A DNA stretch of 64,000 bases, taken from assembly GCA_965223825.1 (NCBI GenBank), contig OZ245018.1, positions 1,939,792-2,003,791 on the forward strand, written 5' to 3'. This stretch comes from Gammaproteobacteria bacterium (GTDB lineage: Bacteria; Pseudomonadota; Gammaproteobacteria; CAJXQU01). Below, in pieces: positions 6,900 through 56,258 of this stretch (positions are counted from its first letter, which is position 1; each line of letters begins with the position of its first letter). The position numbers and the translations under genes are program-made. The notes beneath the pieces are model-generated. The model ran no database searches, had not been told where the DNA came from, and saw only the letters and a list, made by a program, of their open reading frames with translations.

Positions 6900-6989
6900 T
6901 TGCACAACCTTATAAAATAGGTGATCATTTAAAGTGAGCACTTCGAAATCGGCCATACTGGCTAACTTTTTCTACTTAGGAGAAAACAC

Positions 6990-9011: not shown

Positions 9012-11129
9012 TCACAAATCCACTGTTTCTCGGCTGATTAATGACACCGAAACTTGTACACCTTTCTCCGTATTATCAATAGACAGTGTACCACCGTGAA
9101 ACTCCGAAATTTGCTGCGCAATGTACAAACCAATGCCCAAATGGGGAACTTGATGCAGGCTTAACCGTGCTTTTTTATCGGCTGTGACTTCGCCCGTTTT
9201 TGGTAAATTGAAAGCTGGTCCAGAATTGTCGATCGTAATCAGAAATCGTGAGTTGATTTCATCGTCTTCCACGCGTAACACGATCTTGATCGGTGTCTCT
9301 TTTTGGGCATATTCCACCGCATTGGAAACTAATTTATCCAGCATTTGCACTAAAAGATCGGGCACTCCGATGAAGGAATACCGTTCTGAACCCTTAATGG
9401 TGCCATGTCTTTCAGCATTAAATTCAAACGGCACGCTAGGATAAGCATTACGATAGCCTTTAACACATTGATCGAGCAATTGGTCGAGTTCAATCACGGA
9501 ATAATCAGCGCTGCGTAGCGCTTGATCAAGATGTGCCGCCTCACTTAAACGAACGGTTAAACGTTGTAAACGCGCGATACCTTCTCGTGCGCGCGTGAGA
9601 TAAACCAACCGCTCATCCCCTTCTGCATTAGCAAGATTTTCCAGTGATGACTGCACAACAGCCATCGGCGTTTGTAGCTCGTGCGAAAGTTTTCCAGCCA
9701 AGCTTTCCAAATAATCATGGTGCTCAGACAAACGTTTTAACATTAATGAATATTGTTGCGAAAGATCGCCGAGCTCATCTGCCCACGGCTTACCCACTTC
9801 GGTTTCCACCACACGTCCGTTGATATCGATCGCGGCATTAGCATCACGGCTCAACCGTCGAATTCGACGAGACAAACTGGCCGAAAATATTAACAACAGC
9901 AACGTCACAAAAACAAAAACCAACAAGGTGCGTGTGAATAAATTCGCTAGGGCCTGACGTTGTACCATTTGCAAATTACCCGTGGTTTCTTCAACGATTA
10001 CAGCACCGATTATATTCTCACCGAATCGTATCGGTTGTGCTGCGGAGACAATCGCAGCCTCTTCATCCGATGATGAGCGCCAGCGTAATGCAGCTTTTCC
10101 TGATAATGCTTGCAACACTTCCTGCCCCTGCAAACGGGATGCGCCTTGTAATTCATCACGAAAACGATCATTCACCGACGGGAGGATTAAACGATAAAAA
10201 CGATTCACGAATTGACGGCGATCAGGATTTCGCAAAGAGCCACGCGTCGCCAACACATTACCCACTTGATCCAACACCCAAATACGACGACCCGGTGACA
10301 AGCTCAGTGCGTGTAAATGCGCATTGAGCTGATCAGAACTGCTGACTAAATGGTTCAATAATTGAGGCTGCTCAGGATCAAAACTCTCGATCACGTCAAT
10401 CTTAGTCGCCTTATTCGGTTGAAGTCGCACGTCGACATCGTGAATAATGAAACCTAAATCCTCAGCAAGCACATTCTCTGGCATGCGCAGCTCCACGCTA
10501 TAACCCTGGTCGTGCTCTTGCCAAAAACCATGTGCATTCGTCACTTTTCGGACAAATGGTCGTGGCTCCCAGATCGTCTCATCCCAGACCAAGCCTTGTT
10601 CGTAAATCCCGATTTGCCCCGGTGCCGCTGGCGCAAGCCACCAGTGCTGACGATCACCCTGTTCGTCGTGATAGATCAGTTCGATCTGATCACCTTGCAC
10701 CTCAAAAGGTTGATCGGGTGACTGATAGATAAGATTCTCGTCATTCACATAGAACAACAAATAACGCTCCTGATCGCGTTGCGCGATCAGGACTTTTACG
10801 GTGAGTTTTCCGTCTGCTGAAGAAAACACTTCGGCCCATTGCAACAGGCTATCCCAATCTTCGGTGTAACCATCTACTTGCACAACTTGACGCATTGGGT
10901 GAATAAACAAAGATCGCAAACTATTCGGTGACGCTTCGGGGAAAGAATCGGCCTTGCTAACGAGAAATCCGGCGGCCATGCTCGCATCGCCCGCGAGAGA
11001 AACTTCTAGCCCTTCGCGCAAAAACGACTCCATTTCACGCACATAATCATAGGCGACATAAGGCAAACTCAGGACAGCAATCGCGATCAGTACTAGTTGC
11101 CGTCGAATAGAAAAACGGTGTCGACTCAT
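9012..11129 (-). CDS. Sensor histidine kinase with large periplasmic sensing domain
   Basis: 705 aa; N-terminal TM, ~350-aa periplasmic region, second TM, HAMP-like, H-box SHELQTPMAVVQSSLENL, C-terminal HATPase (GIGLYIAQQISEFHGGTL). Confidence 0.85.
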   Translation of the reverse strand: MSRHRFSIRRQLVLIAIAVLSLPYVAYDYVREMESFLREGLEVSLAGDASMAAGFLVSKADSFPEASPNSLRSLFIHPMRQVVQVDGYTEDWDSLLQWAEVFSSADGKLTVKVLIAQRDQERYLLFYVNDENLIYQSPDQPFEVQGDQIELIYHDEQGDRQHWWLAPAAPGQIGIYEQGLVWDETIWEPRPFVRKVTNAHGFWQEHDQGYSVELRMPENVLAEDLGFIIHDVDVRLQPNKATKIDVIESFDPEQPQLLNHLVSSSDQLNAHLHALSLSPGRRIWVLDQVGNVLATRGSLRNPDRRQFVNRFYRLILPSVNDRFRDELQGASRLQGQEVLQALSGKAALRWRSSSDEEAAIVSAAQPIRFGENIIGAVIVEETTGNLQMVQRQALANLFTRTLLVFVFVTLLLLIFSASLSRRIRRLSRDANAAIDINGRVVETEVGKPWADELGDLSQQYSLMLKRLSEHHDYLESLAGKLSHELQTPMAVVQSSLENLANAEGDERLVYLTRAREGIARLQRLTVRLSEAAHLDQALRSADYSVIELDQLLDQCVKGYRNAYPSVPFEFNAERHGTIKGSERYSFIGVPDLLVQMLDKLVSNAVEYAQKETPIKIVLRVEDDEINSRFLITIDNSGPAFNLPKTGEVTADKKARLSLHQVPHLGIGLYIAQQISEFHGGTLSIDNTEKGVQVSVSLISRETVDL

Positions 11130-11836
11130 TGAGAACTGTGCGCCGGGCTATTCCAACGGTAACCCATGCCGTAAACCGTTTCGATACAATCAAAATTCGG
11201 ATCGAGTTGTTTGAATTTTTTACGGATTCGTTTGATGTGTGACGTGATCGTGCTGTCATCAACAAACACATTCGCGTCCTGCATGAGCTGATCGCGATGT
11301 TTTACGTGACCCGGATAACGCACCAAAGAGTGCACCACCCAAAACTCCGTCAAGGTCAGCGGGACTTTTTGATCAAGCCAAGTTGCGATCAATCGTTCAG
11401 AATCGATCACGAGCTGATCACACGTTAACAAGGCCGGTGTTTCGGTTTGTAATAACGCGTCAATACGCCGAAATAAGGCGTTTATACGCGCCAAAATTTG
11501 CGGCATGGTGATACTTTTGGTCAGGTAATCATCCGCACCGAGTCGTAGCCCGGAGATAGCGTCGTAATCAGATTCTTTCGCAGTGAGAAAGATGATCGGT
11601 AAACTGTTCGATTTACCGCGTAACATCTGACACAAGGTAAACCCCGCTTCGGCTTCGTCGCCCAAGCTAATATCCAAAATCACCAGATCCGGCAACTTTA
11701 CTGCAAACGCTTGTTCCGCGCTGGCTCTGCTAGCATAGGTCGAAATGTCATACCCCTGCTTTCGCAGATGCGCTGCATAGTTCTCACGCAAGGCTTCCTC
11801 ATCTTCAACAATCGCAATCCGTCGAGACATGCTCAC
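11126..11836 (-). CDS. OmpR-family response regulator (receiver + winged-helix)
   Basis: 236 aa; receiver Asp pocket IAIVEDEE...LVILDISLGDE; C-terminal wHTH (TLTEFWVVHSLVRYPGHVKHRDQL...VDDSTITSHIKRIRKKF); 4-bp ATGA overlap with kinase gene. Confidence 0.9.
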   Translation of the reverse strand: MSMSRRIAIVEDEEALRENYAAHLRKQGYDISTYASRASAEQAFAVKLPDLVILDISLGDEAEAGFTLCQMLRGKSNSLPIIFLTAKESDYDAISGLRLGADDYLTKSITMPQILARINALFRRIDALLQTETPALLTCDQLVIDSERLIATWLDQKVPLTLTEFWVVHSLVRYPGHVKHRDQLMQDANVFVDDSTITSHIKRIRKKFKQLDPNFDCIETVYGMGYRWNSPAHSSQ

Positions 11837-12392
11837 AACTCCATTTTAAATTCGCGCTATTCTCGCAATTTCCACCCATTCACTTTCGGCTTATTGTAGT
11901 AATTCAAACAGCGGTTAGCGAGAGTCATAAATGCACTGTAACGCATCCACCAACAAAACCGAATGCCACCGACATAAAGACGTTGAGATGCCTTCTTTTC
12001 GCCACAATTCAGCCCGACTTCGTCACAGAAGCACCCTCTGAACGACCGTTTTACTTGTTCAACTAAGCATCCACAAAGTATTACGGCCAACTTATGTCAA
12101 ACACAACGCCTTCTCTCGACTCCCTCCAACCCCTTGCCGCCAGTTCTTCTGGCGGCCTTCTTAAGCCGGATGATAAGCACAGTCACTCGCTTTCGCGCTG
12201 GTTACTGCGGGGCATTGCGCTATGTATTTTGCGCAGCGTTCTTCACGGTTTTGCTATCTCGATTAGCCTTTGCACGCTCATCTTTTTAATCTCATAATCA
12301 CCTCGTACCCAGCAACCTAACCCCATGAATGTCGATTAAACTTTTTTGCTTTTCTGTCGCTATAGCAATAAATCAAAATACACTTTAGAGGC

Positions 12393-13274
12393 TTGCCGAT
12401 GAATCCAGCGACAAACAGTTCAAATGCACCCGACACGAATCAGGGTTCTATTACGGTAATGACCTTATATATTGAAGACTCGATGTATGCCATTCCCATT
12501 GATAACGTTGTGAGCCTGAGTAAAGAGACCGATCACATCCAACCATTACCCATCAAAGCACCTGGTCTACTTGGTGTGAGCCATTTTCTCGGTTCCGTTG
12601 TGCCGGTGTTGGATGTTGCGAGTCGCATTGGCGTTAAATCAGGAACGGCATCCAAGCAAGAAATGATCGAAACACTGACGGCGCGTGAACAAGAACACGT
12701 TGAATGGCTCGATGCGCTGGAACGATCAATAAAAACAGGTGAGCGTTTTAGTAAAGCACGCGATCCGCATGAATGTGCTTTCGGCCAATGGTACGATAAT
12801 TTCGATTCACGAAATGAAGCGCTTCGCGAAATTTTCTCTCAATTTGACGCGCCGCATCGACAAATTCATAGCCTCGCCGATAAATTACTGAGTATGCGCG
12901 ATGCCGGTAATGAAGAAGCAGCGATCAAAGAATTAAATTTCCAACGATCAACCACACTTCGGCGTTTACGATCGCTCTTTAGCCATGCTCGATTACAACT
13001 ACAAGAACTAATGCGTCCAATTCTGTTATACGTGACACAAGACGGAAATAAACCCGCCTTCGCACTGTTGATAGACGAGGTGCATGATGCGCTGACGTAT
13101 GATCTTGCGAGTTGTCATAGTCCGGAAAAAGCCGGTTTTAATTTGTTACTCGGTCAAGATAAATTCATTAAAGGTGTTTTTTCTGATGCCCAACATCCTA
13201 AGTGTATTCTTTTAGATGTTGATAACATTCTCAAGCCTGAACACCTGCACGCCCTTTCAGAAGCCGCCGCATAA
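12393..13274 (+). CDS. CheW-like protein with a chemoreceptor zinc-binding (CZB) domain inserted into the CheW fold
   Basis: 293 aa; N-terminal CheW half (YAIPIDNVVSL...PGLLGVSHFLGSVVPVLDVASRIG), central CZB motifs HECAFGQW ... APHRQIHSL (Cx[F]Gx[W]...HxxxH), C-terminal CheW half (AFALLIDEVHDAL...ILLDVDNIL). Confidence 0.7.
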   Translation: MPMNPATNSSNAPDTNQGSITVMTLYIEDSMYAIPIDNVVSLSKETDHIQPLPIKAPGLLGVSHFLGSVVPVLDVASRIGVKSGTASKQEMIETLTAREQEHVEWLDALERSIKTGERFSKARDPHECAFGQWYDNFDSRNEALREIFSQFDAPHRQIHSLADKLLSMRDAGNEEAAIKELNFQRSTTLRRLRSLFSHARLQLQELMRPILLYVTQDGNKPAFALLIDEVHDALTYDLASCHSPEKAGFNLLLGQDKFIKGVFSDAQHPKCILLDVDNILKPEHLHALSEAAA

Positions 13275-13283
13275 ATCAATCAC

Positions 13284-13315
13284 CATATCCTGATCCGAAC
13301 GTGGATCAGGATATG
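13284..13315. promoter_or_regulatory. Perfect 13-bp-arm palindrome between cheW-CZB stop and trHb start (catatcctgatcc-gaacgt-ggatcaggatatg)
   Basis: Seen directly; no downstream T-run, so operator/attenuator/processing hairpin more likely than terminator. Confidence 0.4.
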
Positions 13316-13331
13316 CTAAAATGGCCGTCTT

Positions 13332-13730
13332 ATGAGCCAAGACAATCCCCTTTCCGCCTACCAAATTATAGGTGGCGATGACGGCGTTCGAGAACTCGTT
13401 GATCGCTTTTACGATTATATGGATACACTGCCGGAAACGGTGGGTATTCGCGCTCTTCACCCTAACGATTTACGCAGTGCACGTGAAAAACTCTATATGT
13501 TTTTTAGTGGCTGGATGGGCGGCCCTGATCGTTACATTGCGGCATTTGGCCACCCACGTTTACGTGCTCGACATTTACCATTCAAAATCGGCAAAAGTGA
13601 GCGTGATCAATGGATGTTATGCATGGAAAAAGCGCTCGCTGACATGATCGAAGTCGATGCCGCTTTCAAAGCGCAATTACTTTCATCGTTTAATCAAACA
13701 GCCACGTTTATGATCAACCAGGAAGAATGA
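13332..13730 (+). CDS. glbO: Truncated haemoglobin, group II (trHbO/YjbI-like)
   Basis: 132 aa; 2-on-2 globin motifs IGGDDGVRELVDRFYDYM, proximal His in FGHPRLRARHLPF, W in GWMGGPDRY. Confidence 0.85.
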   Translation: MSQDNPLSAYQIIGGDDGVRELVDRFYDYMDTLPETVGIRALHPNDLRSAREKLYMFFSGWMGGPDRYIAAFGHPRLRARHLPFKIGKSERDQWMLCMEKALADMIEVDAAFKAQLLSSFNQTATFMINQEE

Positions 13731-13842: not shown

Positions 13843-14814
13843 TTAATGTCCTTTATGTGCACCCTCGTTTTTCAGCGCTTTCGCTTGTTCTACCCAATGC
13901 TCGCGTCTGATCGTGCCTTGACTGTTTAACTCAACATCAAACCGTTCGACATCTTTCTCATTCCACTTTGCGATATCACTAAAACGCGTCACACCGAGAC
14001 GACGTAGTACGCTCACATGCTCCTCAGCCAAGCCGCGAATTTTTTGTAAATCATCCTCTTTCTTACGCAAGAACTGATCGACAATAGACGGTTTCTTTTG
14101 ATTTTCTAACGAGGCCTTTAGCTGTGATATTTCGTTGTCTTTTTTCGCGATCTCATCGAATAATTCTTGCACACGATTTTGTAGACGGCCAATACGGCTA
14201 ATCGCTAACTCTGGATCCGTATTACCGCTCAATGCGGCTAATTGCAATGACTCGCCCGTTTGTGATTCAAGCTCTGCAATGCGCCGGTCGCGCTCAAGAA
14301 CACCCATGCGCGCTTGTTCAAACGCATTCTTTAAGACACGGCTTTGTTCTGTAATCTCATCTAGATCGCCTTCAAACCGACTTAGTTGAGATCGGATTTC
14401 GGTTAATTCTGTTTTCAATTTCGCGTTATCTTTCATTTGTGCATCGAGTGCATTGCGGGTCGTTTTCAGGGAATTATTAGCAATGTCACTTTCACGAGTC
14501 AGTGTTTGGATCTGCTGCTTACGCTCGTTGTAGCGCATATTCGCATTTTGTAATTCCTGTTGAATTCGTGACAAATCGGCCTCTTCCAAGTGGTTTTGAG
14601 CCTTTTCAGCCTCTAACTGTTCGCTTAACCGTATGCGTTGATCTCGCGTTGCATCCAACTCTTTTTGGATCGTATGCATGTGTCCCATTAGCGCTACTTC
14701 TGCATCTTCCAGTTTATGCTTCCAAGCTGATCGCGTGAATAACCATCCGCACAACCACGCTAATGCTGCAGTCGCCAACAGATAGAGTACGATTTCCCCT
14801 ATCAGATAATTCAT
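13843..14814 (-). CDS. N-terminally membrane-anchored long coiled-coil protein, hypothetical
   Basis: 323 aa; one N-terminal TM, ~230 aa of E/Q/R/L-rich coiled coil, conserved basic C-terminal tail; start abuts stop of upstream BON gene (14814/14816). Confidence 0.6.
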   Translation of the reverse strand: MNYLIGEIVLYLLATAALAWLCGWLFTRSAWKHKLEDAEVALMGHMHTIQKELDATRDQRIRLSEQLEAEKAQNHLEEADLSRIQQELQNANMRYNERKQQIQTLTRESDIANNSLKTTRNALDAQMKDNAKLKTELTEIRSQLSRFEGDLDEITEQSRVLKNAFEQARMGVLERDRRIAELESQTGESLQLAALSGNTDPELAISRIGRLQNRVQELFDEIAKKDNEISQLKASLENQKKPSIVDQFLRKKEDDLQKIRGLAEEHVSVLRRLGVTRFSDIAKWNEKDVERFDVELNSQGTIRREHWVEQAKALKNEGAHKGH

Positions 14815-14815
14815 T

Positions 14816-15556
14816 TCACTTTCTCCCCACCCTCAATTGCTTGTCCAACGTAAATTGCATTGGTAAGTTTGCAACGGCTTCATCAAAAGCCCGCTGAGCC
14901 TGCTCACCAGAGACAATACCTGACACACGAATCTGATTACCGATGTAAGCCAATTGCCCTTCTTCTACCCATTGTAGAAATGGGATCATCAAAGGCAAAT
15001 CCTGCAAGTACCATACCGGTTTTTCACTTAGTCTATCAACAGTTACGCTATATACATGATCTGTCGGTTCAAGCAACGAGGTAAACGTCTTCGCCAGATC
15101 ATTTTTAATTTTTCCCGTCGGCACAGTGCCATTAATTGCGACACCTAATCTATCCTTACTGACAAACAGATCAGATGAATACACTTCCGCTCGAGCACTA
15201 CTTTGAATGATTGTTTTTTCGGGTGAGGATGGGGATGGCGTATCAGCGATTACATTGCTTTCAACACTCAAGCGCTCTTGATGAAACGCGATCGTTCGTT
15301 GATAGATCACGCGCGCACCGTTGTTTTTTGCAATCAAGGCGGCTTCTTTGACGGAATCGGCAGGTCCCGTCAATAACATATCCAAGCCGCTCGTTTCGAC
15401 ACGAACAACGGATAGTTGTTCGTCAGCGAGTGCTCGAACAACCTTACCTTGAAGTCTGTCTTCCAGCTGTTGCGGCGCGTACTTGAGCGTTAGCCCCATC
15501 GCCAGCAACAGCAGAAGCAGACAAAACCACTTCACCAACTTACCTACCCCACCCAT
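14816..15556 (-). CDS. Membrane-anchored periplasmic protein with two BON-like domains, hypothetical
   Basis: 246 aa; N-terminal signal/anchor FCLLLLLLAMGL; BON-like segments (LSVVRVETSGLDMLLTGPADSVKEAALIAKNNGARVIYQ; IRVSGIVSGEQAQRAFDEAVANLP). Confidence 0.55.
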   Translation of the reverse strand: MGGVGKLVKWFCLLLLLLAMGLTLKYAPQQLEDRLQGKVVRALADEQLSVVRVETSGLDMLLTGPADSVKEAALIAKNNGARVIYQRTIAFHQERLSVESNVIADTPSPSSPEKTIIQSSARAEVYSSDLFVSKDRLGVAINGTVPTGKIKNDLAKTFTSLLEPTDHVYSVTVDRLSEKPVWYLQDLPLMIPFLQWVEEGQLAYIGNQIRVSGIVSGEQAQRAFDEAVANLPMQFTLDKQLRVGRK

Positions 15557-15919: not shown

Positions 15920-16130
15920 AGAGTTGCGCCTGCTCGCGGTGCTTCGTTTAAAAATGAAGCGTTATGGGAAGTCGGTCTAAATCCGACGCTGCCCCCGCAA
16001 CGGTAGATGAGCATAGCCTGATTACAAAGCCACTGTGAAAACATGGGAAGGCGATCAGGCTGGAGAGTTCGCGATTTGTTAGCACACTCCACTCATAAGC
16101 CCGGAGACCGACCGAGAGCACAATAACCAG
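15920..16130 (+). promoter_or_regulatory. Cobalamin (B12) riboswitch in btuB leader
   Basis: Conserved elements readable: GGTGC..AA..GGGAAGTCGGTctAAATCCGACGCTGCCCCCGCAACGGTA ... B12 box AAGCCACTGTGAAAA..GGGAAGGCG; followed by expression platform and RBS GGGGAGA before TTG start of TonB receptor. Confidence 0.8.
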
Positions 16131-16270
16131 TCGCGGAGGGCGATGGATGGTCATGCTCAGAATCAACCGCCTGTCATGCCGCGATCACGTCTATCGTGTT
16201 CCACCATCAAACTCTCTGCTATCACCATTTCTTTGCTGTTCGGGTTGGAACGGTAACGGGGAGAATAAAA

Positions 16271-18217
16271 TTGAATAATATTACAGCAGGTTCATTTGCC
16301 CTGCTCACGACAGTTGGCCTGATCGCATCCGCGCAGGCAGAAAACATCCAGAACCTTGACGATGTATTAGTCACCGCATCTCGCGCACCGATTGCAAAAG
16401 ATCAAACCGGCTCATCGTATACCGTCATCACCGCAGAACAGATCGAGCAATCTCAACAAGTACAAGTGCATGAATTATTGCGAACTGTGCCCGGCATCGC
16501 AGTAAGTCGATCTGGTGGTATTGGATCGCAAACACAAATTCGTATGCGAGGCGCGGAGGCTGATCAGACATTAATTTTGATCGACGGCATCGAAGCAAAC
16601 GATCCTGGTCAAGGCTCTAGTTTTGATTTTGCGCATTTACTGACTGCCGATATTGAACGTATCGAAATCCTGCGTGGCCCACAAAGTGCGCTGTGGGGAA
16701 GTGATGCGATGGGTGGCGTGATCAATATCATTACTAAATCCGCGACCCGGAACCAGTTAAATGCCACGCTCGAAGCGGGAAGTTATTCTACAGTCCAGAA
16801 CACCATCAGTGGCAGTGTTGCTGGCGATCGCTACGGTATTGCCGTTAATGGTAATTTTCTACGCAGTGCTGGTATCAATGTCTCAGAGCAAGGCGATGAA
16901 GAGGATGGCTACCGGAATTCGACTTTGAATTTAAAAGCAAATTTCAACCCATTCGACAATCTTGATCTACTTTTTACCGCTCGCAAAAGCGCATCAGAAA
17001 AAGACTTCGATCCAACCTCGTTCATCACCTCCAAACCCGTGGATGGCGATCGCATCTCAGACGTTGATCAGTTTTATAGCCAATTTAATGCCGTATTGGA
17101 TACCTTAGATGGCCACTGGCAACACGTGTTCAACATCGCGTGGACCAAAACTGACAACGATAATTTTGCCGACGGTGTTGAAAACAGTTCAACCAATGGT
17201 GAAAAACGTAAAGTGAGTTATCAAAGCAATTTTTTCTTTGATACACCTTCATTTGCTGAGGCTGAACATACGTTAAGTCTCGCGCTGGAATACGAGCGTG
17301 AAGAATTTAAACAAACCGGCACCGCCAGCACATTCGGTAACCCAAACCAAGAACAGGATTTGAGTAACCGAGGCGTCATTGGTGAATACCGCATCAGCCT
17401 ACTCAAACAAATCCACGCATCTGCATCCATCAGACATGATAATAACGACGCATTTGATGATGCGACCACGTGGCGGACGAATATCGCGTGGGCAATTCCA
17501 AACACCGGTTCTACAGTACGTGCAGCTTATGGTACTGCTGTGAAAAATCCGTCATTCACGGAGCGGTTTGGTTTTACACCGGATACTTTCTTCGGTAACA
17601 CGAACCTCGAACCGGAAGAATCCAAAGGCTGGGAAATTGGTCTCGATCAATCTTTCTTGCAAGATCGCCTCACCGCCAGCGTGACATATTTTAAAGAGCG
17701 GTTAGAAAACGAAATTAACGGCTTCGTGTTTGATCCGACTCTCGGCACTTTTGGTGGTTTCACCGCACAAAACGTGCAAGGTGACAGCAAACGTCATGGT
17801 GTTGAACTGGCGCTAAACGCGATCATTTCTGACGCGCTCAGCATGAACGGCATGCTCACGTATGTTGACTCAACTCAGCCCGATGCTAATGGTGAGCAAA
17901 TCCGCGAGTTACGACGCCCTGAATACACTGCCGCGTTTGGGACGAATTATCGTTTTTTTCATAACAAAGCGAGCGTCAACCTCGATATCAGCTATACCGA
18001 CACGCAAAATGACAGTGACTTCAGCACATTTCCTGCAACACTCGTTACACTTGACGACTATGTGTTAGTGAATATTGCGACAGAATACGCGGTTCACCCT
18101 CGTGTGACCTTATTCGGCCGTATCGATAATCTCCTCGATGACGACTATCGCGATGTTTATGGTTACAACACAACGGGAATCGCCGGTTATGCGGGTTTTC
18201 GTGTTAGCTTGTATTAA
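16271..18217 (+). CDS. btuB: TonB-dependent outer-membrane receptor, cobalamin-type (BtuB-like)
   Basis: ORF 16196..18217; likely TTG start at 16271 after RBS GGGGAGA; signal peptide, TonB box region DVLVTASR, plug + 22-strand barrel, C-terminal aromatic YAGFRVSLY; riboswitch-controlled and followed by btuF/cobO. Confidence 0.85.
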   Translation: MNNITAGSFALLTTVGLIASAQAENIQNLDDVLVTASRAPIAKDQTGSSYTVITAEQIEQSQQVQVHELLRTVPGIAVSRSGGIGSQTQIRMRGAEADQTLILIDGIEANDPGQGSSFDFAHLLTADIERIEILRGPQSALWGSDAMGGVINIITKSATRNQLNATLEAGSYSTVQNTISGSVAGDRYGIAVNGNFLRSAGINVSEQGDEEDGYRNSTLNLKANFNPFDNLDLLFTARKSASEKDFDPTSFITSKPVDGDRISDVDQFYSQFNAVLDTLDGHWQHVFNIAWTKTDNDNFADGVENSSTNGEKRKVSYQSNFFFDTPSFAEAEHTLSLALEYEREEFKQTGTASTFGNPNQEQDLSNRGVIGEYRISLLKQIHASASIRHDNNDAFDDATTWRTNIAWAIPNTGSTVRAAYGTAVKNPSFTERFGFTPDTFFGNTNLEPEESKGWEIGLDQSFLQDRLTASVTYFKERLENEINGFVFDPTLGTFGGFTAQNVQGDSKRHGVELALNAIISDALSMNGMLTYVDSTQPDANGEQIRELRRPEYTAAFGTNYRFFHNKASVNLDISYTDTQNDSDFSTFPATLVTLDDYVLVNIATEYAVHPRVTLFGRIDNLLDDDYRDVYGYNTTGIAGYAGFRVSLY

Positions 18218-18278
18218 ATAGAAATAACCTGGCTGGGCGGGATTTTTTTGGGAGCATGATCCCGTCCAGTCTTAATTA

Positions 18279-18974
18279 ATGGTAATAAATCAACGTATGA
18301 TTAAAAAACGTGTGCTCCTTTCTTGGAGCAGCGGCAAAGACGCCGCATGGACGCTTTGGCAATTACAGCAAGATCCTGAGGTCGATATTATTGGCCTGCT
18401 TACCACCATGAACGGCGAATTCGATCGCGTCGCTATGCACTCCACCCGTCGCACCTTGCTGGCCGCACAAGCAGAAGCGGCAGGCCTACCCTTATTTACC
18501 GCCAACCTGCCTTGGCCGTGCAGCGACAGTAAATACCGATCAGTCATGCACCGAACCGTCAAAAAACTCGTCCGTCAGCAGAAAATTACGCATATCGCCT
18601 TTGGGGACTTATTTCTTGAAGACGTACGCGAATATCGAGAAACGCTCTTCGCCTCAACACCCGTTGAACTGCTGTTTCCACTCTGGGGCAAAGACACTAA
18701 AACCCTTGCAGCTGAAATGATCGAAAATGGACTACAAGCACAATTAACGTGCCTTAACCCCAACCAATTAGACAAACGCTTTGCCGGTCGGCAATTTGAT
18801 CATAATTTTCTCAACGAACTCCCGGAATCCGTCGATGCCTGTGGTGAGCGTGGCGAGTTTCATACGTTTGCTTACGCAGGCCCGATGTTTTCTGCGCCAC
18901 TGGCAGTTCAAAGCGGCGAAACGGTAGATCGCGATGGATTTGTGTTCTCTGATCTGAAATTATTCGGATCATGA
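18279..18974 (+). CDS. COG2102/DUF71 (MJ0570/Dph6-like) ATP pyrophosphatase-family protein
   Basis: 231 aa; PP-loop LLSWSSGKDAAW; GERGEFHTF motif of the Dph6/MJ0570 family; 4-bp overlap with btuF. Confidence 0.75.
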   Translation: MVINQRMIKKRVLLSWSSGKDAAWTLWQLQQDPEVDIIGLLTTMNGEFDRVAMHSTRRTLLAAQAEAAGLPLFTANLPWPCSDSKYRSVMHRTVKKLVRQQKITHIAFGDLFLEDVREYRETLFASTPVELLFPLWGKDTKTLAAEMIENGLQAQLTCLNPNQLDKRFAGRQFDHNFLNELPESVDACGERGEFHTFAYAGPMFSAPLAVQSGETVDRDGFVFSDLKLFGS

Positions 18975-19894
18975 AAATTGTTTCTCTCTTACCGAGCGCT
19001 ACTGAAATTCTCTGTCAGATCGGTCTGCAAGATCAGCTTGTCGGTGTCACACACGAATGTGATTATCCACCAGCGGTATTAGATCTGCCGAAAGTCACAA
19101 TAACGCTAATCCCTAAAGACGCCACCAGCAAAGAAATTGATCAACAAGTAAATGACCATTTATCCGAAAATGCAGCATTGTATTCGCTGAATATGGACGT
19201 GCTCGAAACGCTGCAACCGGATCTTATTGTCACGCAAGCCTTATGCGACGTTTGTGCTGTGGCCGAATCCGAAGTGAATGCTGCCGCCTGTACCCTGCCC
19301 GGCCAACCGCGTGTGATCAACCTTGAGCCGATGTCATTGCAAGATGTTTACGACACGATCACGCTCGTCGGTAAAGAAACGGATCACATCGATGAGGCAA
19401 AAAATGCACTAGAAAAATTGCAAGCCCGTGAACAAATCGTTCGTGCCAGAACACAGAAGATCAGCAAAGCCAAATGCCCCACCGTCGGCTTTTTAGAATG
19501 GATTGATCCGCCCTTCAACGCAGGCCACTGGACGCCCGAATTGATCGATTATGCTGGTGGCATCGACGTGCTCGGTAATCTCAACCAACCATCGGAAACC
19601 ACCAGTTGGGATCGCGTACGACAAGCTGATCCGGATGTGATCTTTGTTGCCGTCTGCGGGTTTAGTTTGGAACGTACACTGATCGATATGGACATTATGG
19701 CGAGCTTTCCCGGCTACACCGAATTAAACGCTGTCAAAACCAATCGTGTCTATGTCACTGACGGCAATGCCTACTTTTCCCGATCTGGTCCACGTTTAAT
19801 CGACTCACTGGAAATCATGGCGCATGCACTTCACCCAGATATTCATCCCGCCCCACTGATAGCGGATCCCGCGATTATCTATCAAACCCCCTAG
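18971..19894 (+). CDS. btuF: Periplasmic cobalamin/iron-siderophore binding protein (BtuF-like, cluster A-2 SBP)
   Basis: 307 aa; MKIVSLLPSATEILCQIGL...VGVTHECDYP motif typical of BtuF/FecB-type SBPs; B12 cluster context. Confidence 0.8.
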   Translation: MKIVSLLPSATEILCQIGLQDQLVGVTHECDYPPAVLDLPKVTITLIPKDATSKEIDQQVNDHLSENAALYSLNMDVLETLQPDLIVTQALCDVCAVAESEVNAAACTLPGQPRVINLEPMSLQDVYDTITLVGKETDHIDEAKNALEKLQAREQIVRARTQKISKAKCPTVGFLEWIDPPFNAGHWTPELIDYAGGIDVLGNLNQPSETTSWDRVRQADPDVIFVAVCGFSLERTLIDMDIMASFPGYTELNAVKTNRVYVTDGNAYFSRSGPRLIDSLEIMAHALHPDIHPAPLIADPAIIYQTP

Positions 19895-19948
19895 ATCGCA
19901 CGCTCGATATGCTCGACAGTACTGATTATATGCTCAAGAGAAAAAACC

Positions 19949-20545
19949 ATGACCGATAAACACCACGAAGCACACATGCAAGAAACCAAAGCCACCATGG
20001 ATGATCGGATAAAAAGTGCAAAAGATAAAAAGGGTCTGATCTTAATCTTAACCGGCGACGGCAAAGGCAAAAGCAGTTCTGGCTTCGGCATGGTCGCGCG
20101 ATCACTCGGCCACAAAATGCATTGCGGTGTCGTGCAATTTATTAAAGGCGCGTTCAGCACCGGCGAAGAAAAATTCTACAAACGCTTCCCCGATGAAGTG
20201 GAATATCACGTCATGGGCGAAGGCTACACCTGGGAAACCCAAAACCGCGATCAAGATGTTGCAGCAGCCGAACGCGGCTGGGCTGTCGCACAAAAAATGC
20301 TGCAAGATCCGAACTTTGATCTCGTCTTACTCGATGAATTAAATATTGTGTTGGATTTTAATTATCTCGATATTGATAAAGTGATTGCTGATCTACAAGC
20401 CACCCCCCCCATGCAACACGTCGTCATCACTGGCCGAGGCGCACCACAAAAACTGATCGAGATCGCGGATACGGTAAGTGAAATTCAAGTGATCAAACAT
20501 GCGTTCGATCAGGGGATTACGGCGCAGAAAGGAGTGGAGCTTTAA
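19949..20545 (+). CDS. cobO: Cob(I)yrinic acid a,c-diamide adenosyltransferase (CobO/BtuR)
   Basis: 198 aa; P-loop GDGKGKSSSGFG, VVQFIKG, ITGRGAP motifs of BtuR/CobO. Confidence 0.9.
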   Translation: MTDKHHEAHMQETKATMDDRIKSAKDKKGLILILTGDGKGKSSSGFGMVARSLGHKMHCGVVQFIKGAFSTGEEKFYKRFPDEVEYHVMGEGYTWETQNRDQDVAAAERGWAVAQKMLQDPNFDLVLLDELNIVLDFNYLDIDKVIADLQATPPMQHVVITGRGAPQKLIEIADTVSEIQVIKHAFDQGITAQKGVEL

Positions 20546-40519: not shown

Positions 40520-43207
40520 TTATTTAGCTAAGCTGATGGCATCGTCTTGCTGAAGCGACATTTCACTTAGTAATGTTTGTAATTCTGGTTTACATGAACC
40601 GCAGTTCGTTCCCGCTTTGAGACACTTCCCAATTTGATCAACGCTCACCAGGTTTTGTTCGATAATTGCATTATTTATTGTGTTTTGCCCGACATTAAAA
40701 CACGAACACACAACAGGCCCTGTGTCTGCCGATGGATCGGCTGGTCGACCGGACAAAAGATTAAAACGCGCTTCTGTTTCAAATTCAGCTTCGTGAAACT
40801 GCGTTAATAACCAGTCACGTGCTGGCAGTAGATCGTAATCGTTAGCAACAAATATGCAGGCTTCAATACGACCATCCTTAAAAAAAACGGCGCGATAAGC
40901 ACCCGACTTTTCATCCTGATATTCCATCACATCAAGATCATCGTCCAAGATCGATAACTGTTCTTTTACATTATCTTTCCACAATGTCGATTCTGTAGAA
41001 TTGGCCATTTCATATCGCCAGAACTCATCTTCGATCGCCAATGCCCAATAATCAGCTGCTGGTGAAATTATCTTACGCCGACTCAAAATAAAACCATGTT
41101 GTACTGATAAAAAAGGTTGAATATTTACCGGGCTATATTTAAATTCAGGTTGCCCTGAAAACGGATCATTCGACGAAAACACTAACGTATCAACTCGCGC
41201 TGAGGAAGCAAATTGTGCGTTCCAATGGATCGGTACAAATACCTCACCTGGCCGTTGATCATCACTGATTTTCAAGCGAACGGTGATCCCCCCCTTCTCA
41301 CTCTGCACTGATACAAGCTGCTGTTCTTTCAACGAAAGTGACGCCGCTGTATTAGGATGAATCGTCGCGTAAGGTTCAATAATATGCCGTGACAACGTTG
41401 GTGCTTTACCCGTTCTCGTCATCGTATGCCAATGATCGCGTACACGCCCAGTATTCAACACAAACGGATAGTCTTTCGTGATCGCATTTTTAGGAGAGAA
41501 ATAGCTTAGCGGTAAGAATTGCGCTTTTTTGGTTGCCGTAAAAAACTGGCCATCACCAAACAGTCTTGTTGTCGATTGTGACTTTTCTTTTATTGGCCAT
41601 TGTTTTGGGATAAATGCATCATACTCACCGTCATCCAAATCCTTTAAACCGCTAATATCAAAATCACGCTCACCGGTATTTTCAAAACCAGACAACGCTG
41701 CGTGTTCGCGAAACACGTCCGCAGCCGACGAAAAGTTAAATCCATCTGTAAATCCCATACGCTGCGCAACTTGACTGATAATCCACCAATCATGACGAGC
41801 ATCACCGGATGTAGGCATGAACGATCGCATTCGCGAAATACGTCTTTCTGAGTTTGTGACAGTGCCAGACTTTTCAGCCCAGCCTGTGGCGGGTAATAAA
41901 ATATCAGCACAATCCGTTGTGTCAGTATTTTGCACGCAATCCGACGCGATCACGAGATCGCATTTTTTTAATGCCGCTTTTACACGATCAGCATCCGGCA
42001 TACTTACCACAGGATTTGTCGCCATGATCCAAACTGCTTTGACTTTCCCTTCTTCCACTGCCTGAAATAAATCAACGGCTTTTAAACCCGGTTTTTTTGC
42101 GATCACCGGCGACGACCAAAAGCGTTGTACTAAATCAGTCTCTTTCGGATTAAAGTCCATGTGTGCTGCTAACATGTTAGCCAAACCACCTACTTCTCGT
42201 CCGCCCATCGCATTTGGTTGGCCCGTAATCGAAAACGCACCACTACCTTCTTTTCCAATGCGTCCCATTGCCAGATGACAATTAATGATCGCATTAACTT
42301 TATCCGTACCACTCGAAGATTGATTAACGCCTTGAGAAAATAAACTGATCGTTTTTTCTGTCTCTGCAAATGCTGCATAAAAAGCGCGAACATCATCGGC
42401 AGACACATCACAAATTTCAGCGACTTTTTCTACAGTTGGAGATGTCTTTTCAGCACTCACAATTGCGGCATCAAAACCTTCTGTAAACGCATTGATATAG
42501 TCAGCTTTATGCAAACTGTTAGATGTGAGATAAGTCAGAAGTCCATTAAAGAGCACGACATCGGTTCCCGGCTTAATGGGTAAGTGAAGCCATGCCCCAT
42601 CACAACTAGCGGTTTTACGTGGGTCAACAACGATCATACGTAAATTGTCACGCCCTTCCGCCGCCGCTTTCATGCGTTGGTATAAAACCGGGTGACACCA
42701 AGCGGCATTTGAACCGATCAACACCATGAGATCCGCTTTCTCTAGATCTTCATAGCAATTCGCGACCGTATCCTTACCGAATGCACGCTTATGACCCGCC
42801 ACGGCAGATGACATACACAAACGTGAGTTCGTGTCGATATTCGCCGATCCAATATAGCCTTTCATTAGCTTATTCGCGACGTAGTAATCTTCCGTCAGTA
42901 ACTGACCAGAAACATAAAATGCCACAGCCTCGGGGCCATGTTTTGCAATTACATCTTTGAGCCCATCAGCAACGGCAGACAACGCCGTGTCCCAATCCGT
43001 TAACGTTCCATTGATGTGCGGATGTAAAAGACGCCCTTCCATGTCAACGGTTTCAGCTAACGCTGAACCCTTTGAACAAAGCCTTCCAAGATTTGCAGGG
43101 TGACTGGAATCACCTTTGACCTGATACCCCCCAGACTCATTCTGGGAAATAATCACGCCACAACCTACCCCGCAATATGGGCATGTGGTTTGAACAGCAC
43201 TATTCAT
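40520..43207 (-). CDS. nasA: Assimilatory nitrate reductase catalytic subunit (molybdopterin), with C-terminal BFD-like [2Fe-2S] extension
   Basis: 895 aa; N-terminal CPYCGVGCG 4Fe-4S motif, MoCo-binding regions, C-terminal CSCFNVG...CGSCKPEL. Confidence 0.9.
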   Translation of the reverse strand: MNSAVQTTCPYCGVGCGVIISQNESGGYQVKGDSSHPANLGRLCSKGSALAETVDMEGRLLHPHINGTLTDWDTALSAVADGLKDVIAKHGPEAVAFYVSGQLLTEDYYVANKLMKGYIGSANIDTNSRLCMSSAVAGHKRAFGKDTVANCYEDLEKADLMVLIGSNAAWCHPVLYQRMKAAAEGRDNLRMIVVDPRKTASCDGAWLHLPIKPGTDVVLFNGLLTYLTSNSLHKADYINAFTEGFDAAIVSAEKTSPTVEKVAEICDVSADDVRAFYAAFAETEKTISLFSQGVNQSSSGTDKVNAIINCHLAMGRIGKEGSGAFSITGQPNAMGGREVGGLANMLAAHMDFNPKETDLVQRFWSSPVIAKKPGLKAVDLFQAVEEGKVKAVWIMATNPVVSMPDADRVKAALKKCDLVIASDCVQNTDTTDCADILLPATGWAEKSGTVTNSERRISRMRSFMPTSGDARHDWWIISQVAQRMGFTDGFNFSSAADVFREHAALSGFENTGERDFDISGLKDLDDGEYDAFIPKQWPIKEKSQSTTRLFGDGQFFTATKKAQFLPLSYFSPKNAITKDYPFVLNTGRVRDHWHTMTRTGKAPTLSRHIIEPYATIHPNTAASLSLKEQQLVSVQSEKGGITVRLKISDDQRPGEVFVPIHWNAQFASSARVDTLVFSSNDPFSGQPEFKYSPVNIQPFLSVQHGFILSRRKIISPAADYWALAIEDEFWRYEMANSTESTLWKDNVKEQLSILDDDLDVMEYQDEKSGAYRAVFFKDGRIEACIFVANDYDLLPARDWLLTQFHEAEFETEARFNLLSGRPADPSADTGPVVCSCFNVGQNTINNAIIEQNLVSVDQIGKCLKAGTNCGSCKPELQTLLSEMSLQQDDAISLAK

Positions 43208-43214
43208 TTTGTTC

Positions 43215-43577
43215 TTAAGCTTTTTCTAAAATTTCGACAATGCCATCGTTAACCCTTACAGTAAACGTCTTTAGTTTCACGTTTTCATCTTGTAAGCATT
43301 GCCCCGATTCCAGACAAAAATGTTGTTTATAAAGTGGTGAGGAAACGACGGCTTTGCCTTTTACATCACCAACGATGCCTCGTGATAAAACATTAGCGTT
43401 TCCGAAAGGATCAAAATTACTGATCGCATAAATATCACTTTCATCGTCACCAACTTTAAATACAGCAACCTGCTCATCTGCAACCAACGCGCAGACGCCA
43501 TCATTTATCGTGAGCTCTTCCAATGGACAGAGCGTAACCCAAGTTTCATTTGTCATTTTATTCGCAGCCACATTCAT
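43215..43577 (-). CDS. nirD: Nitrite reductase [NAD(P)H] small subunit NirD
   Basis: 120 aa Rieske-like fold; directly downstream of nirB. Confidence 0.9.
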   Translation of the reverse strand: MNVAANKMTNETWVTLCPLEELTINDGVCALVADEQVAVFKVGDDESDIYAISNFDPFGNANVLSRGIVGDVKGKAVVSSPLYKQHFCLESGQCLQDENVKLKTFTVRVNDGIVEILEKA

Positions 43578-43583
43578 GTTGTA

Positions 43584-46115: not shown

Positions 46116-46170
46116 GCCCATACCTCTAACTTAAATTCGTTGCCTAATAAAATGAGTGCCAGGTTTCTCA

Positions 46171-47433: not shown

Positions 47434-47579
47434 TACATTACTAATTGCATGCTGTATGCCAATTACCTATCTTTCTGTTTTATATGAGGTTTTAACTGGT
47501 TAAAACCTAACGAGCAATACCCTTCGCCCAAACTAAGTGCGATTAACACTTTAATTGCACACATGCGGTGCGCAATACT

Positions 47580-49322: not shown

Positions 49323-49397
49323 AATAGTTTCTTATTGAATTTAAGTGATTCATTAACAACGTGCTAAATCAACTTAGCACGTTGTCTATATTTATAA

Positions 49398-50864: not shown

Positions 50865-51139
50865 TGAGCGTGCTCCATGTTAATAAAAATTCTTGACAAC
50901 ACGGCACACCCTTCACAGTAAAGTGAGGAAACGAATTACTCTAAATTGTTTCAAAGTGGCGCAGCATCGTTGCCGGCATAGGCGGTATTTAGCAAGTTTC
51001 TTGCCAAATACAAATTCTAGGTATATATCATTGTTTTATATAGCTTTAAACTATAATCACTCATATAAAATAAGACCCGTTACAGGTTTGTCGCACTCTT
51101 TATGTGCATAAAATATTATTTATGCACCAATCTGATCAG

Positions 51140-51170
51140 CTATAAAAAAGGCTCCATTTAGGAGCCTTTG
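51140..51170 (-). terminator. Rho-independent terminator after nrt ABC operon (minus orientation)
   Basis: AGGCTCCatttAGGAGCCT hairpin, U-run on minus strand (plus tataaaaaa). Confidence 0.75.
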
Positions 51171-51210
51171 AACTAAAAATGATAACGGTAAAAACGGAAA
51201 CGTTTACAAC

Positions 51211-52896: not shown

Positions 52897-52907
52897 TTTC
52901 CTACTCC

Positions 52908-54056: not shown

Positions 54057-54137
54057 GATTACCCCAGGTTCTCATATTGATGGTGCCAGCATCATTACTG
54101 GCACCGTTTGACTGAATTAAATTAGTAGCTTAGTTAA

Positions 54138-55514: not shown

Positions 55515-55571
55515 TTTTATACCCCTTTAAGTTTTTCTAATGCTTATTCAACTAAATAAGCGTTTAAATAG

Positions 55572-56159: not shown

Positions 56160-56258
56160 AATCTTTTACTTTTATGGTTGTTATTTTTTTATTCTATTTA
56201 TTTGATTAAAAAACGATCATGAGGAGATTCCCTTCTCCCCAAAATCGGTAAGAGGACT

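Follow-up and report, generated by a model that had tools for sequence, protein, structure and literature searches.

Within the window, by which we mean the whole 64-kb stretch of DNA analysed here, a gene for a protein combining CheW and CZB domains (CheW-CZB) is followed by a gene for a truncated haemoglobin, and a perfect palindrome lies in the gap between them. The features on which our analysis relies are the following.

12399..13274, + strand: nested CheW-CZB coding sequence (ORF listing; Pfam CheW and CZB both above their gathering cut-offs)
12447..12635, + strand: CheW N-terminal half, residues 17-79, Pfam CheW positions 2-69 (Pfam; AF2)
12636..13013, + strand: nested CZB domain, predicted four-helix bundle, residues 80-205
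12696..12698, + strand: codon of His100, putative zinc ligand 1, equivalent to DgcZ His22 (sequence; alignment to 3t9o)
12774..12776, + strand: codon of Cys126, counterpart of DgcZ Cys52 and putative redox-reactive zinc ligand in the C-A-F-G-x-W motif (sequence; DgcZ alignment)
12855..12869, + strand: codons of His153 and His157, the third and fourth putative zinc ligands, at the positions of DgcZ His79 and His83 (sequence; DgcZ alignment)
13014..13229, + strand: CheW C-terminal half, residues 206-277, Pfam CheW positions 76-135
13284..13315, no strand: perfect inverted repeat CATATCCTGATCC-N6-GGATCAGGATATG, arms of 13 bp around a 6-nt loop, within the 57 bp between the two genes
13332..13730, + strand: group II truncated (2-on-2) haemoglobin, 132 aa (Pfam Bac_globin; PDB relatives)

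The ORF listing offers two candidate starts for the CheW-CZB gene, a TTG at 12393 (293 aa) and an ATG at 12399 (291 aa). Since the database protein P0001, which is 100% identical to the gene product, comprises 291 aa, the ATG is the likely start, and all residues of the window protein are numbered according to the 291-aa form.

The CZB domain is nested inside the CheW fold

The Pfam CheW profile (PF01584) matches the window protein with 44.9 bits (cut-off 23.5) in two collinear stretches, and the CZB profile (PF13682) matches with 50.3 bits (cut-off 29.4) between them. In the AF2 model of the protein (pLDDT 88.8, pTM 0.79), the N-terminal CheW half consists of strands 17-25, 28-33, 37-41, 57-63 and 66-72 and a helix at 73-77, the C-terminal half of another five strands with one short helix; the protein has the two intertwined five-stranded beta-barrels typical of CheW and CheA-P5. 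A second model (pLDDT 92.9, pTM 0.85), computed for a remotely related family member of a different lineage, has the same strand-helix-strand order, and Pfam hits precomputed for distant members likewise run CheW, CZB, CheW. Foldseek aligns CheW over about 265 columns spanning the insert, with target-normalised TM-scores of 0.79-0.81, and the top structural matches of the models are CheW, CheV and CheA-P5. The insert takes the place of a surface loop equivalent to residues ~77-84 of E. coli CheW; residues 82-84 of the E. coli protein were left out of a molecular dynamics alignment for being too mobile (Ortega et al., 2013; PMC3828127).

The CZB domain is thus nested inside the CheW fold, as the HMM coordinates and the predicted structures show. 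A preliminary description of this DNA had placed it between two CheW halves and not in tandem with CheW, a topology that our HMM mapping and structure prediction bear out; it had rightly noted the insert as well, but its length, given as about 110 aa, has to be corrected to about 125 aa. One might still suspect a mis-assembly, a fusion or frameshift, or a CheW domain followed by a C-terminal CZB domain with an unrelated tail, all the more as the C-terminal half, when searched alone, reaches only 17 bits against Pfam CheW (E=0.0046), the N-terminal half alone giving E=1.4e-7. The identical protein is, however, present on 12 independent contigs, its full-length homologues number in the hundreds, and two independent high-confidence models agree on the topology. 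We therefore count an artefact or a simple tandem as already refuted, with a residual chance close to nil.

When aligned to DgcZ (3t9o), the four putative zinc ligands of the window protein fall onto those of the cyclase, and they are retained by its relatives almost without exception: His100 in 209, Cys126 in 208, His153 in all and His157 in 209 of 210. The distance between His153 and His157 is four residues in 210/210 relatives, and that between His100 and Cys126 is 26 residues in 209/210. The cysteine motif of the window protein reads C-A-F-G-Q-W and conforms to Cys-x-[FL]-G-x-W; its second position, Ala127, is alanine in 166/210 relatives. Judged from these alignments, the putative 3His/1Cys zinc site, which the preliminary description had proposed, is complete in the window protein and varies hardly at all within the CheW-CZB family. 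Equally constant is the path from the CheW part into the bundle: from the equivalent of Asp70 in CheW strand 5 to the first zinc ligand, His100, there are 28 residues in 207/209 sequences. Because its length is fixed, this junction suggests a rigid mechanical link between CheW and CZB.

CheW surfaces and extent of the family

Sequence conservation is distributed unevenly over the protein, with 25/126 columns of the CZB part conserved to at least 80%, versus 3/133 in the CheW halves. A functional CheW of the F7 type is marked by the Glu38-Arg62 salt bridge together with Gly57 and Gly63 (E. coli numbering), and substitutions of Arg62 in E. coli CheW impair chemotaxis and leave binding intact (Ortega et al., 2013; PMC3828127). 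The window protein has equivalents of both glycines, Gly57 being kept in 176/210 relatives, and the positions of the receptor groove (E. coli I33, V36, V105 and V108) stay hydrophobic in CheW-CZB. The hallmark pair is absent from the window protein: Glu38 is replaced by Ser39 and Arg62 by Leu64. Among the 70 closest homologues, none has glutamate at the Glu38 position and four have arginine at the Arg62 position; in the wider family the two residues co-vary and occur together in 67/210 sequences. By these alignments, the subclade of the window protein has lost the pair, though a third of the family keeps it, and the specific window protein is a divergent member of the CheW-CZB family.

This family is large. 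With representatives defined as clusters at 50% identity and a threshold of E<=1e-30, 773 representative clusters from several phyla match the window protein; nearly all of the best 150 of these align over their full length in one stretch of roughly 260-300 aa. The members recovered belong to Gammaproteobacteria, Deltaproteobacteria and Acidobacteriota. In the clusters of ten representatives, the only name carried by the member proteins was 'purine-binding chemotaxis protein CheW'.

The combination of both domains had been catalogued before. 'CheW-CZB' is a subgroup in the compilation of Perkins et al. (2021, mBio; PMC8262984), whose text describes it as commonest in Clostridia, with alanine or little conservation at the second position of the cysteine motif, and proposes a CZB-regulated CheW as its function; Muok et al. 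(2023; PMC10653840) list it as well. The window protein, with both domains in one polypeptide and alanine at this position, falls into this subgroup. CheW-CZB is consequently a catalogued multi-phylum family and no one-off, and the novelty that the preliminary description implied for its architecture is lower than assumed. The nested topology is not described in the searchable text of either paper, figures apart, the text of the supplements of Perkins et al. does not mention CheW, and a literature search for CZB domains inserted into a CheW-like domain found nothing. As the searchable texts treat CheW-CZB as a domain combination, the nested topology and the fixed junction add to the published description.

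Genomic neighbourhood

Most CheW-CZB genes are orphans with respect to chemotaxis. A tblastn search with CheA, CheW, MCP and CheV detected no che gene in the window other than the CheW-CZB gene itself, about 64 of 80 species-level loci have none within 10 kb, and four of four distant members have none within 8 kb. Linkage was found in two clades. In Thiohalobacter, the CheW-CZB gene is located between a REC-PP2C-HATPase_c_2 gene and a che cluster (loci L014 and L038), or directly upstream of such a cluster (L028); the cluster encodes STAS, CheY, CheA, CheW and a globin-HAMP-PAS-MCP, its domains were assigned on L038, and the arrangement at L014 and L028 was deduced from BLAST together with the order of the ORFs. 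The CheW-CZB gene of four Halothiobacillaceae loci has a cheA-cheW-mcp cluster upstream of it. When all ORFs within 6 kb were clustered across the 80 loci, no conserved partner emerged; the commonest neighbour, a large GTPase that resembles translation factors by sequence, occurs in 17/80 loci, and all others in at most 11/80.

The gene downstream of CheW-CZB in the window encodes a group II truncated haemoglobin, as the preliminary description had recognised. Its product matches Pfam Bac_globin (E=4e-36), its best PDB relatives, 2xyk (E=1.7e-30), 4uur and 1ngk (HbO), are all group II 2-on-2 globins, and it carries RFY, GHPRLRARHLPF and RDQW motifs, which we take to be those of B10, F8 and G8. 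The 57-bp gap and the perfect palindrome with 13-bp arms had also been reported correctly. The palindrome is present in a single copy in the window, and none of 100 shuffles produced such a repeat; folded as RNA, it reaches an energy of -21.5 kcal/mol. It is not conserved in the close relatives L001, L002 and L004. We reject it as an intrinsic terminator, since neither strand has a T-run after it and it is missing from the results of a terminator scan, and as a REP-like repeated element, in view of its single window copy and its absence from these three relatives. Candidate roles for it are an operator covering the promoter of the globin gene and a hairpin formed in RNA.

Do CheW-CZB and the globin form one oxidant-, O2- or NO-responsive unit, in which the globin, for example, makes, consumes or buffers the species sensed by the CZB cysteine? 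The two genes share their strand and are only 57 bp apart, they adjoin each other in the closest relatives as well (L001, L002, L004 and L086-88), and the globin-coupled MCP of the che cluster beside CheW-CZB in Thiohalobacter provides a thematic echo. Against this stands the distribution of the pair. A globin within 10 kb was found in 3/80 species-level loci, each in a close relative whose surroundings are fully syntenic; it is missing within this distance at L003, whose CheW-CZB protein is 67% identical, and at 76 further loci, as well as in four of four distant members. Moreover, loci with the globin share their entire gene neighbourhood (YkuD, DUF423, HK, RR, a coiled-coil protein and DUF2788), so that shared ancestry explains the adjacency; neither the intergenic sequence nor its palindrome is conserved, and a promoter-like -10 element just 5' of the globin ATG seems to be the globin's own. 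We consequently regard a joint unit as improbable: the haemoglobin neighbour reflects lineage-specific gene order and is no conserved partner. The dedicated module that the preliminary description had envisaged fails the conservation check it had itself set, with 77 of 80 loci devoid of the globin, and is further undercut by the lack of conservation of the palindrome even among close relatives.

Proposed function and comparison with known systems

Our analysis lends itself to a model in which CheW-CZB would act as a stand-alone adaptor of the CheW family that carries a CZB domain in place of a surface loop and serves as a zinc or oxidant sensor on chemosensory arrays, a reading to which we give a probability of about 0.5. 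We infer its individual steps from the behaviour of CZB domains in DgcZ and TlpD and from that of CheW in chemosensory arrays. The CZB four-helix bundle, which is probably dimeric, would hold one Zn2+ through three histidines and one cysteine, and the protein would dock at CheW positions of the arrays. Loss of the zinc, or oxidation of the zinc-bound Cys126 by HOCl or similar oxidants, would rearrange the bundle. As the helices at both ends of the bundle continue directly into the CheW halves, such a rearrangement would shift the geometry of the two barrels, and hence of the receptor- and kinase-binding surfaces, relative to each other, and thereby tune the coupling to CheA. The physiological signal would be zinc or an oxidant, and the adaptor, not a receptor, would be its point of entry. 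In the subclade of the window protein, the loss of the Glu38-Arg62 pair may mean that the protein binds to arrays and couples differently, for instance as a modulator or decoupler.

A bolder version of this model is possible, if on balance doubtful. The nested CZB domain could be a rigid lever by which zinc occupancy or oxidation of Cys126 resets the angle between the CheW barrels; whole patches of an array might then be switched on or off, or the connectivity of CheW rings rewired through dimerisation of the CZB domains. In the subclade lacking Glu38 and Arg62, the insert might replace the salt bridge that aligns receptor and kinase sites. If this were true, the cytoplasmic metal or redox state would feed directly into chemotaxis, independently of receptors.

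A different interpretation dispenses with coupling altogether: the CheW-like fold could have been co-opted for a cytoplasmic zinc or redox sensor that serves a partner outside the arrays, or for a non-coupling decoy within them. Such a fate would fit the loss of the Glu38-Arg62 pair in the window protein and its subclade, the weakly conserved CheW halves, the mostly orphan-like loci with their variable context and a 64-kb window free of other che genes, findings that tell against the array model as well. Yet the top structural matches are all chemosensory proteins, the hydrophobic groove residues are kept, 67/210 family members retain the canonical pair, and the gene lies in or beside che clusters in two clades, observations that favour a function in arrays. 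To our knowledge, CheW-like domains are known solely from chemosensory complexes (CheW, CheV and CheA-P5). We therefore consider co-option unlikely and retain the zinc- or oxidant-sensing array adaptor as our preferred reading.

CheW is usually viewed as a passive coupling protein. Several hundred sequence clusters that carry a putative high-affinity metal or oxidant switch in the core of CheW, with an invariant junction length, suggest that adaptor-based sensing is widespread and evolutionarily stable, the only tested precedent being CheWS in a spirochete. Culturable carriers such as Pseudoalteromonas, Neptuniibacter, Enterovibrio and Methylophaga make this idea directly testable, and the domain-in-domain geometry is a natural setting in which to examine how the orientation of the CheW barrels controls kinase coupling. 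The haemoglobin neighbour contributes little to this significance.

The closest known counterpart is the CheW-CZB subgroup of Perkins et al. (2021; PMC8262984), with which the window protein shares the two Pfam domains, a soluble protein of about 280 aa and the alanine of the cysteine motif; according to the text of that study the subgroup is commonest in Clostridia, whereas those recovered here stem from Gamma- and Deltaproteobacteria and Acidobacteriota. With E. coli DgcZ (CZB-GGDEF), the window protein has the cysteine motif and the aligned zinc ligands in common. In DgcZ and in TlpD, an MCP-CZB protein of H. pylori, zinc binding and oxidation of the cysteine by HOCl are described as switching the attached output domain (PMC8262984; PMC6715182). 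Their CZB domains are N-terminal and C-terminal, respectively, whereas here both ends of the bundle join CheW, and an adaptor fold takes the place of the cyclase or receptor coiled coil as output.

Canonical CheW proteins (2ho9 from E. coli; 1k0s and 2ch4 from T. maritima; 2qdl from T. tengcongensis) share Gly57, Gly63 and the hydrophobic groove with the window protein; the latter differs from them by its 125-aa insertion at ~77-84, by serine and leucine in place of Glu38 and Arg62, and by a gene that lies outside any che operon. Fusion of CheW to a sensory or regulatory domain is also seen in CheWS of Treponema denticola (CheW-CheR-like), which has been demonstrated to integrate into arrays and to feed its signal in through the adaptor (Muok et al., 2023; PMC10653840), and in CheV (CheW-REC). 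These proteins are tandem fusions joined by linkers and use a SAM-binding CheR-like domain or a phospho-receiver as sensor, whereas in CheW-CZB one domain is inserted into another at a fixed length, with a putative Zn/redox sensor in the CZB domain.

A CZB domain nested within a CheW fold

Pfam families, taken when above their curated cut-offs, divide the product of the following gene between CheW (PF01584, 44.9 bits), split over two stretches, and CZB (PF13682, 50.3 bits), with the NCBIfam DgcZ model also matching the CZB segment.

12393 (TTG) or 12399 (ATG) to stop codon 13272-13274, + strand: CheW-CZB, from the ORF listing

The ATG at 12399 is the probable start codon, since a public protein (P0001) with 100% identity is 291 aa long and occurs on 12 independent metagenomic contigs; residue numbers count from this codon. 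To obtain the domain order, the protein was cut into thirds that were searched separately. The CheW profile (positions 2-69) matched the N-terminal third (E=1.4e-7), the CZB profile (1-63 of 64) the middle third (E=4e-14), and CheW positions 76-135 the C-terminal third (E=0.0046), a match that is weak by itself and collinear with the first stretch. The central observation of the preliminary description, a CZB domain inserted inside the CheW fold, is therefore correct; the insert, put there at about 110 aa, comprises about 125 aa (residues 80-205). Precomputed Pfam matches of distant family members follow the same order of CheW, CZB and CheW.

The AlphaFold2 model, computed from an alignment of 70 homologues, is confident (mean pLDDT 88.8, pTM 0.79). 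In its N-terminal part, five strands (residues 17-72) are followed by a short helix (73-77); the insert has four helices (82-113, 127-147, 150-168, 172-204), and the C-terminal part five further strands (208-272). The model of P0141, a distant member from another lineage with the canonical Glu/Arg pair, has the same strand-helix-strand order (pLDDT 92.9, pTM 0.85), so that two structure predictions agree with the insertion topology that had been proposed.

Structural matches of the model (score; residues matched; deviation)
CheW, T. tengcongensis (2qdl): 17.1; 139 of 146; 2.1 A
CheW, E. coli (2ho9): 14.6; 144 of 167; 2.5 A
CheA P5 (6s1k_B): 14.2; 144; 4.0 A
DgcZ CZB (3t9o): 12.8; 116 of 120; 2.4 A

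Foldseek is in agreement (TM-score 0.79-0.81, normalised to the CheW target), and its alignments of about 265 columns span the insert. By these matches, the two halves together make up a complete CheW fold, and the inserted segment is a complete CZB bundle. When aligned with E. coli CheW, the insertion point falls into the loop equivalent to residues ~77-84; this loop includes residues 82-84, which were left out of a molecular dynamics alignment as too mobile (Ortega et al., PMC3828127).

Predicted zinc site, junction and coupling residues

Pairwise alignment with the DgcZ CZB crystal sequence places H100, C126, H153 and H157 opposite DgcZ H22, C52, H79 and H83. In a family alignment of our protein and 209 members of at least 240 aa each, collected in two homology searches (n=210), these predicted zinc ligands are kept in 209, 208, 210 and 209 sequences, respectively; the ligands of the 3His/1Cys site suggested previously are thus well supported. 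The Cys-motif residues F128, G129 and W131 are kept in at least 207 sequences. Most of the strongly conserved columns belong to the insert: of 28 conserved to at least 80%, 25 are in the CZB part and 3 in the two CheW halves. The path from the CheW strand-5 Asp (equivalent to E. coli D70) to the first predicted ligand measures exactly 28 residues in 207 of 209 sequences, and that from His100 to Cys126 measures 26 residues in 209 of 210. A junction so constant in length points to a rigid helical continuation, not a flexible tether, as mechanical coupling of sensor to adaptor would require.

According to Ortega et al. (PMC3828127), Gly57 and Gly63 are conserved across CheW classes, and F7 proteins invariably have Glu38 and Arg62, whose salt bridge brings the receptor and kinase sites into alignment; the R62A variant still binds both partners and is impaired in chemotaxis. 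All four residues are invariant in eight canonical CheW proteins (that of E. coli and seven from the fetched loci). Our protein keeps the equivalents of both glycines and carries Ser (residue 39) in place of Glu38 and Leu (residue 64) in place of Arg62. Glu38 is found in none, and Arg62 in four, of its 70 nearest homologues; in the wider set (n=210), 67 have both residues, one Glu only and 28 Arg only. By these latter counts, the pair co-varies, and the present lineage is a derived branch from which it was lost. The equivalents of the receptor-groove positions I33, V36, V105 and V108 listed in a 2026 review (PMC13098124) remain hydrophobic. The family as a whole hence looks like one of genuine array adaptors, and the subclade studied here may couple differently. 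The sharp co-variation of Glu38 and Arg62 in the family also provides independent evolutionary support for the salt bridge of Ortega et al. (2013).

Haemoglobin neighbour and genomic context

The preliminary description had read CheW-CZB and the downstream globin, with a palindrome between them, as a dedicated oxidant-responsive module. The surrounding features are:

9012-11129, - strand: histidine kinase, upstream and divergent, with ~470 N-terminal residues lacking a Pfam match
11126-11836, divergent, upstream of CheW-CZB: OmpR-type response regulator
13332-13730, + strand: globin gene
13843-15556, - strand: two convergent genes downstream of the globin, without Pfam match (products of 323 aa, coiled-coil-like, and of 246 aa)
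15920-16130, + strand: cobalamin riboswitch (RF00174, 93 bits), immediately preceding a TonB-dependent receptor gene
16196-20545: B12-uptake cluster (TonB-dependent receptor, then Peripla_BP_2 binding protein and BtuR/CobO adenosyltransferase)

The 132-aa globin is indeed a group II truncated haemoglobin, as judged from its Bac_globin match (E=4e-36) and its best solved relatives, the group II 2-on-2 haemoglobins 2xyk, 4uur and 1ngk. It adjoins CheW-CZB in three related loci (L001, L002, L004) and in contigs with the 77%-identical P0002, and these globin-bearing loci have the whole neighbourhood in common (YkuD, DUF423, histidine kinase, response regulator, coiled-coil protein, DUF2788). Among the 80 loci surveyed, it is absent from L003, which has a 67%-identical protein and the same upstream genes, and from 76 others. 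The palindrome with its perfect 13-bp arms is real, improbable by chance and unique in the window; the equivalent spacers in L001, L002 and L004 lack it, and no T-run follows it.

The globin ATG lacks a Shine-Dalgarno sequence (13314-13331), has an in-frame stop four codons upstream, and is preceded at 9 nt by the end of an extended -10-like element, TGcTAAAAT. The same geometry recurs in L001 (TTTAAT, ~1380-1399), L002 (TCTAAT, ~10912-10930) and L086 (TGcTACACT, ~6970-6989); the -10-like hexamer ends 8-9 nt ahead of the ATG in all four sequences, that of the window included. Together, these features suggest that the globin gene has its own promoter, possibly with a leaderless transcript, in which case the palindrome would cover the -35 and spacer region. 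Given the absence of the globin, in the loci surveyed, outside fully syntenic close relatives, the absence of the palindrome even from L001, L002 and L004, and the signs of a separate promoter, the dedicated module is unsupported.

No other che genes are present in the 64-kb window, and clustering of all ORFs within 6 kb of the gene across the 80 loci yielded no conserved partner. CheA, CheW and MCP genes are found within 10 kb in seven loci from two clades. In Thiohalobacter, the gene is located either between a REC-PP2C-HATPase_c_2 gene and a STAS, CheY, CheA, CheW, globin-HAMP-PAS-MCP cluster (L014, L038) or directly upstream of this cluster (L028), with domains assigned on L038 and those of L014 and L028 inferred from ORF order and BLAST; this organisation resembles that of a chemosensory pathway whose output is of the sigma-factor type. 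The gene is preceded by a cheA-cheW-mcp cluster in four Halothiobacillaceae loci, and four distant members are orphans without nearby che genes. This linkage lends modest support to a chemosensory role; the loci are not phylogenetically independent. Partner-switching genes (REC-PP2C-HATPase_c_2, STAS) stand beside CheW-CZB in Thiohalobacter (L038 7579-16794; also L014 and L028), where the receptor is a 961-aa globin-HAMP-PAS-MCP protein.

Several further observations concern the window itself. Synteny of the histidine kinase and the two genes beyond the globin with CheW-CZB is limited to the closest relatives. An ORF of 67 aa (12094-12297, + strand), with a hydrophobic helix at its C-terminus, precedes CheW-CZB by ~100 bp; the P0002 contigs (L086-88) have a 42%-identical copy, called as a gene, in the equivalent position, and none was found in L002-L004. 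The riboswitch and TonB-receptor cluster look like an ordinary B12 uptake/salvage locus. An Rfam 5_ureB_sRNA match (97.9 bits, 61924-62209, + strand), antisense to a 568-aa ORF (60656-62362, - strand), probably arises from the conserved coding sequence of a urease subunit, not from a genuine sRNA. An assimilatory nitrate/nitrite cluster (40520-57530, - strand) encodes a molybdopterin reductase, Rieske_2 and NIR_SIR reductase proteins, MFS and NMT1_2/ABC transporters and an ANTAR regulator, with an embedded PP2C-Ser/Thr-kinase fusion protein (47580-49322).

A proposed sensor within an adaptor, and its relation to known proteins

By analogy with DgcZ and TlpD (PMC8262984; PMC6715182; 2026 TlpD structure preprint), the 3His/1Cys site would bind Zn2+, Cys oxidation or zinc loss would rearrange the bundle, and the CZB domain would dimerise. 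Judging from CheW biology, the two CheW barrels would present the receptor and P5 binding surfaces, and altered packing of the two helices entering and leaving the bundle would change these surfaces and thereby CheA coupling. We assign a probability of about 0.5 to this mechanism, in which a zinc or redox change in the CZB domain tunes CheA coupling. Its main rival, in which the protein serves a partner outside the arrays or acts as a decoy, has to be set beside the lost Glu38/Arg62 pair and the orphan loci on one hand, and the hydrophobic receptor groove and the che linkage on the other; we consider it rather unlikely. Action of CheW-CZB and the globin as one unit, for which their adjacency in close relatives might speak, is improbable in view of the poor conservation of this pairing. 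The nested CZB domain reported initially is confirmed, and its interpretation holds only in part. Experiments are warranted on the CheW-CZB family, but not on the specific globin pairing.

A profile search covering 1.84 billion representative proteins gave 773 matches at E<=1e-30, the best 150 of which are nearly all full-length matches in a single stretch, of ~260-300 aa. At least 553 related stretches were found in a scan of one genome per GTDB species; the best 80 of these loci are mostly from Gammaproteobacteria and include marine MAGs, Methylophaga, Thiohalobacter, Halothiobacillaceae, Pseudoalteromonas, Neptuniibacter and Enterovibrio. A second homology search with a Glu/Arg-type member as the query retrieved relatives labelled Deltaproteobacteria, Acidobacteriota and Bryobacterales, annotated at source as 'chemotaxis protein CheW'. 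The nested CheW-CZB proteins are a large, old family, not a singular fusion.

In the literature searched, the term 'CheW-CZB' occurs only in two studies. Among 10,140 CZB proteins, Perkins et al. (2021; PMC8262984) distinguished seven architecture subgroups, of which CheW-CZB accounts for 1.4% of the sequences and has Ala or weak conservation at Cys-motif position 2. Muok et al. (2023; PMC10653840) named CheW-CZB among CheW architectures identified by earlier work and proposed, having shown it for CheWS, that sensing via CheW fusions may be widespread. No member is characterised in either study, and the text of Perkins et al. (2021) uses none of the words insert, nested, split and embedded. 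From these texts, the class is already known; the present analysis refines it by a nested topology, a junction of fixed length and the size of the family. With its Cys motif C-A-F-G-Q-W, our protein has the position-2 Ala of the subgroup of Perkins et al., a residue found in 166 of 210 relatives, and is a new, divergent member of this known but uncharacterised kind.
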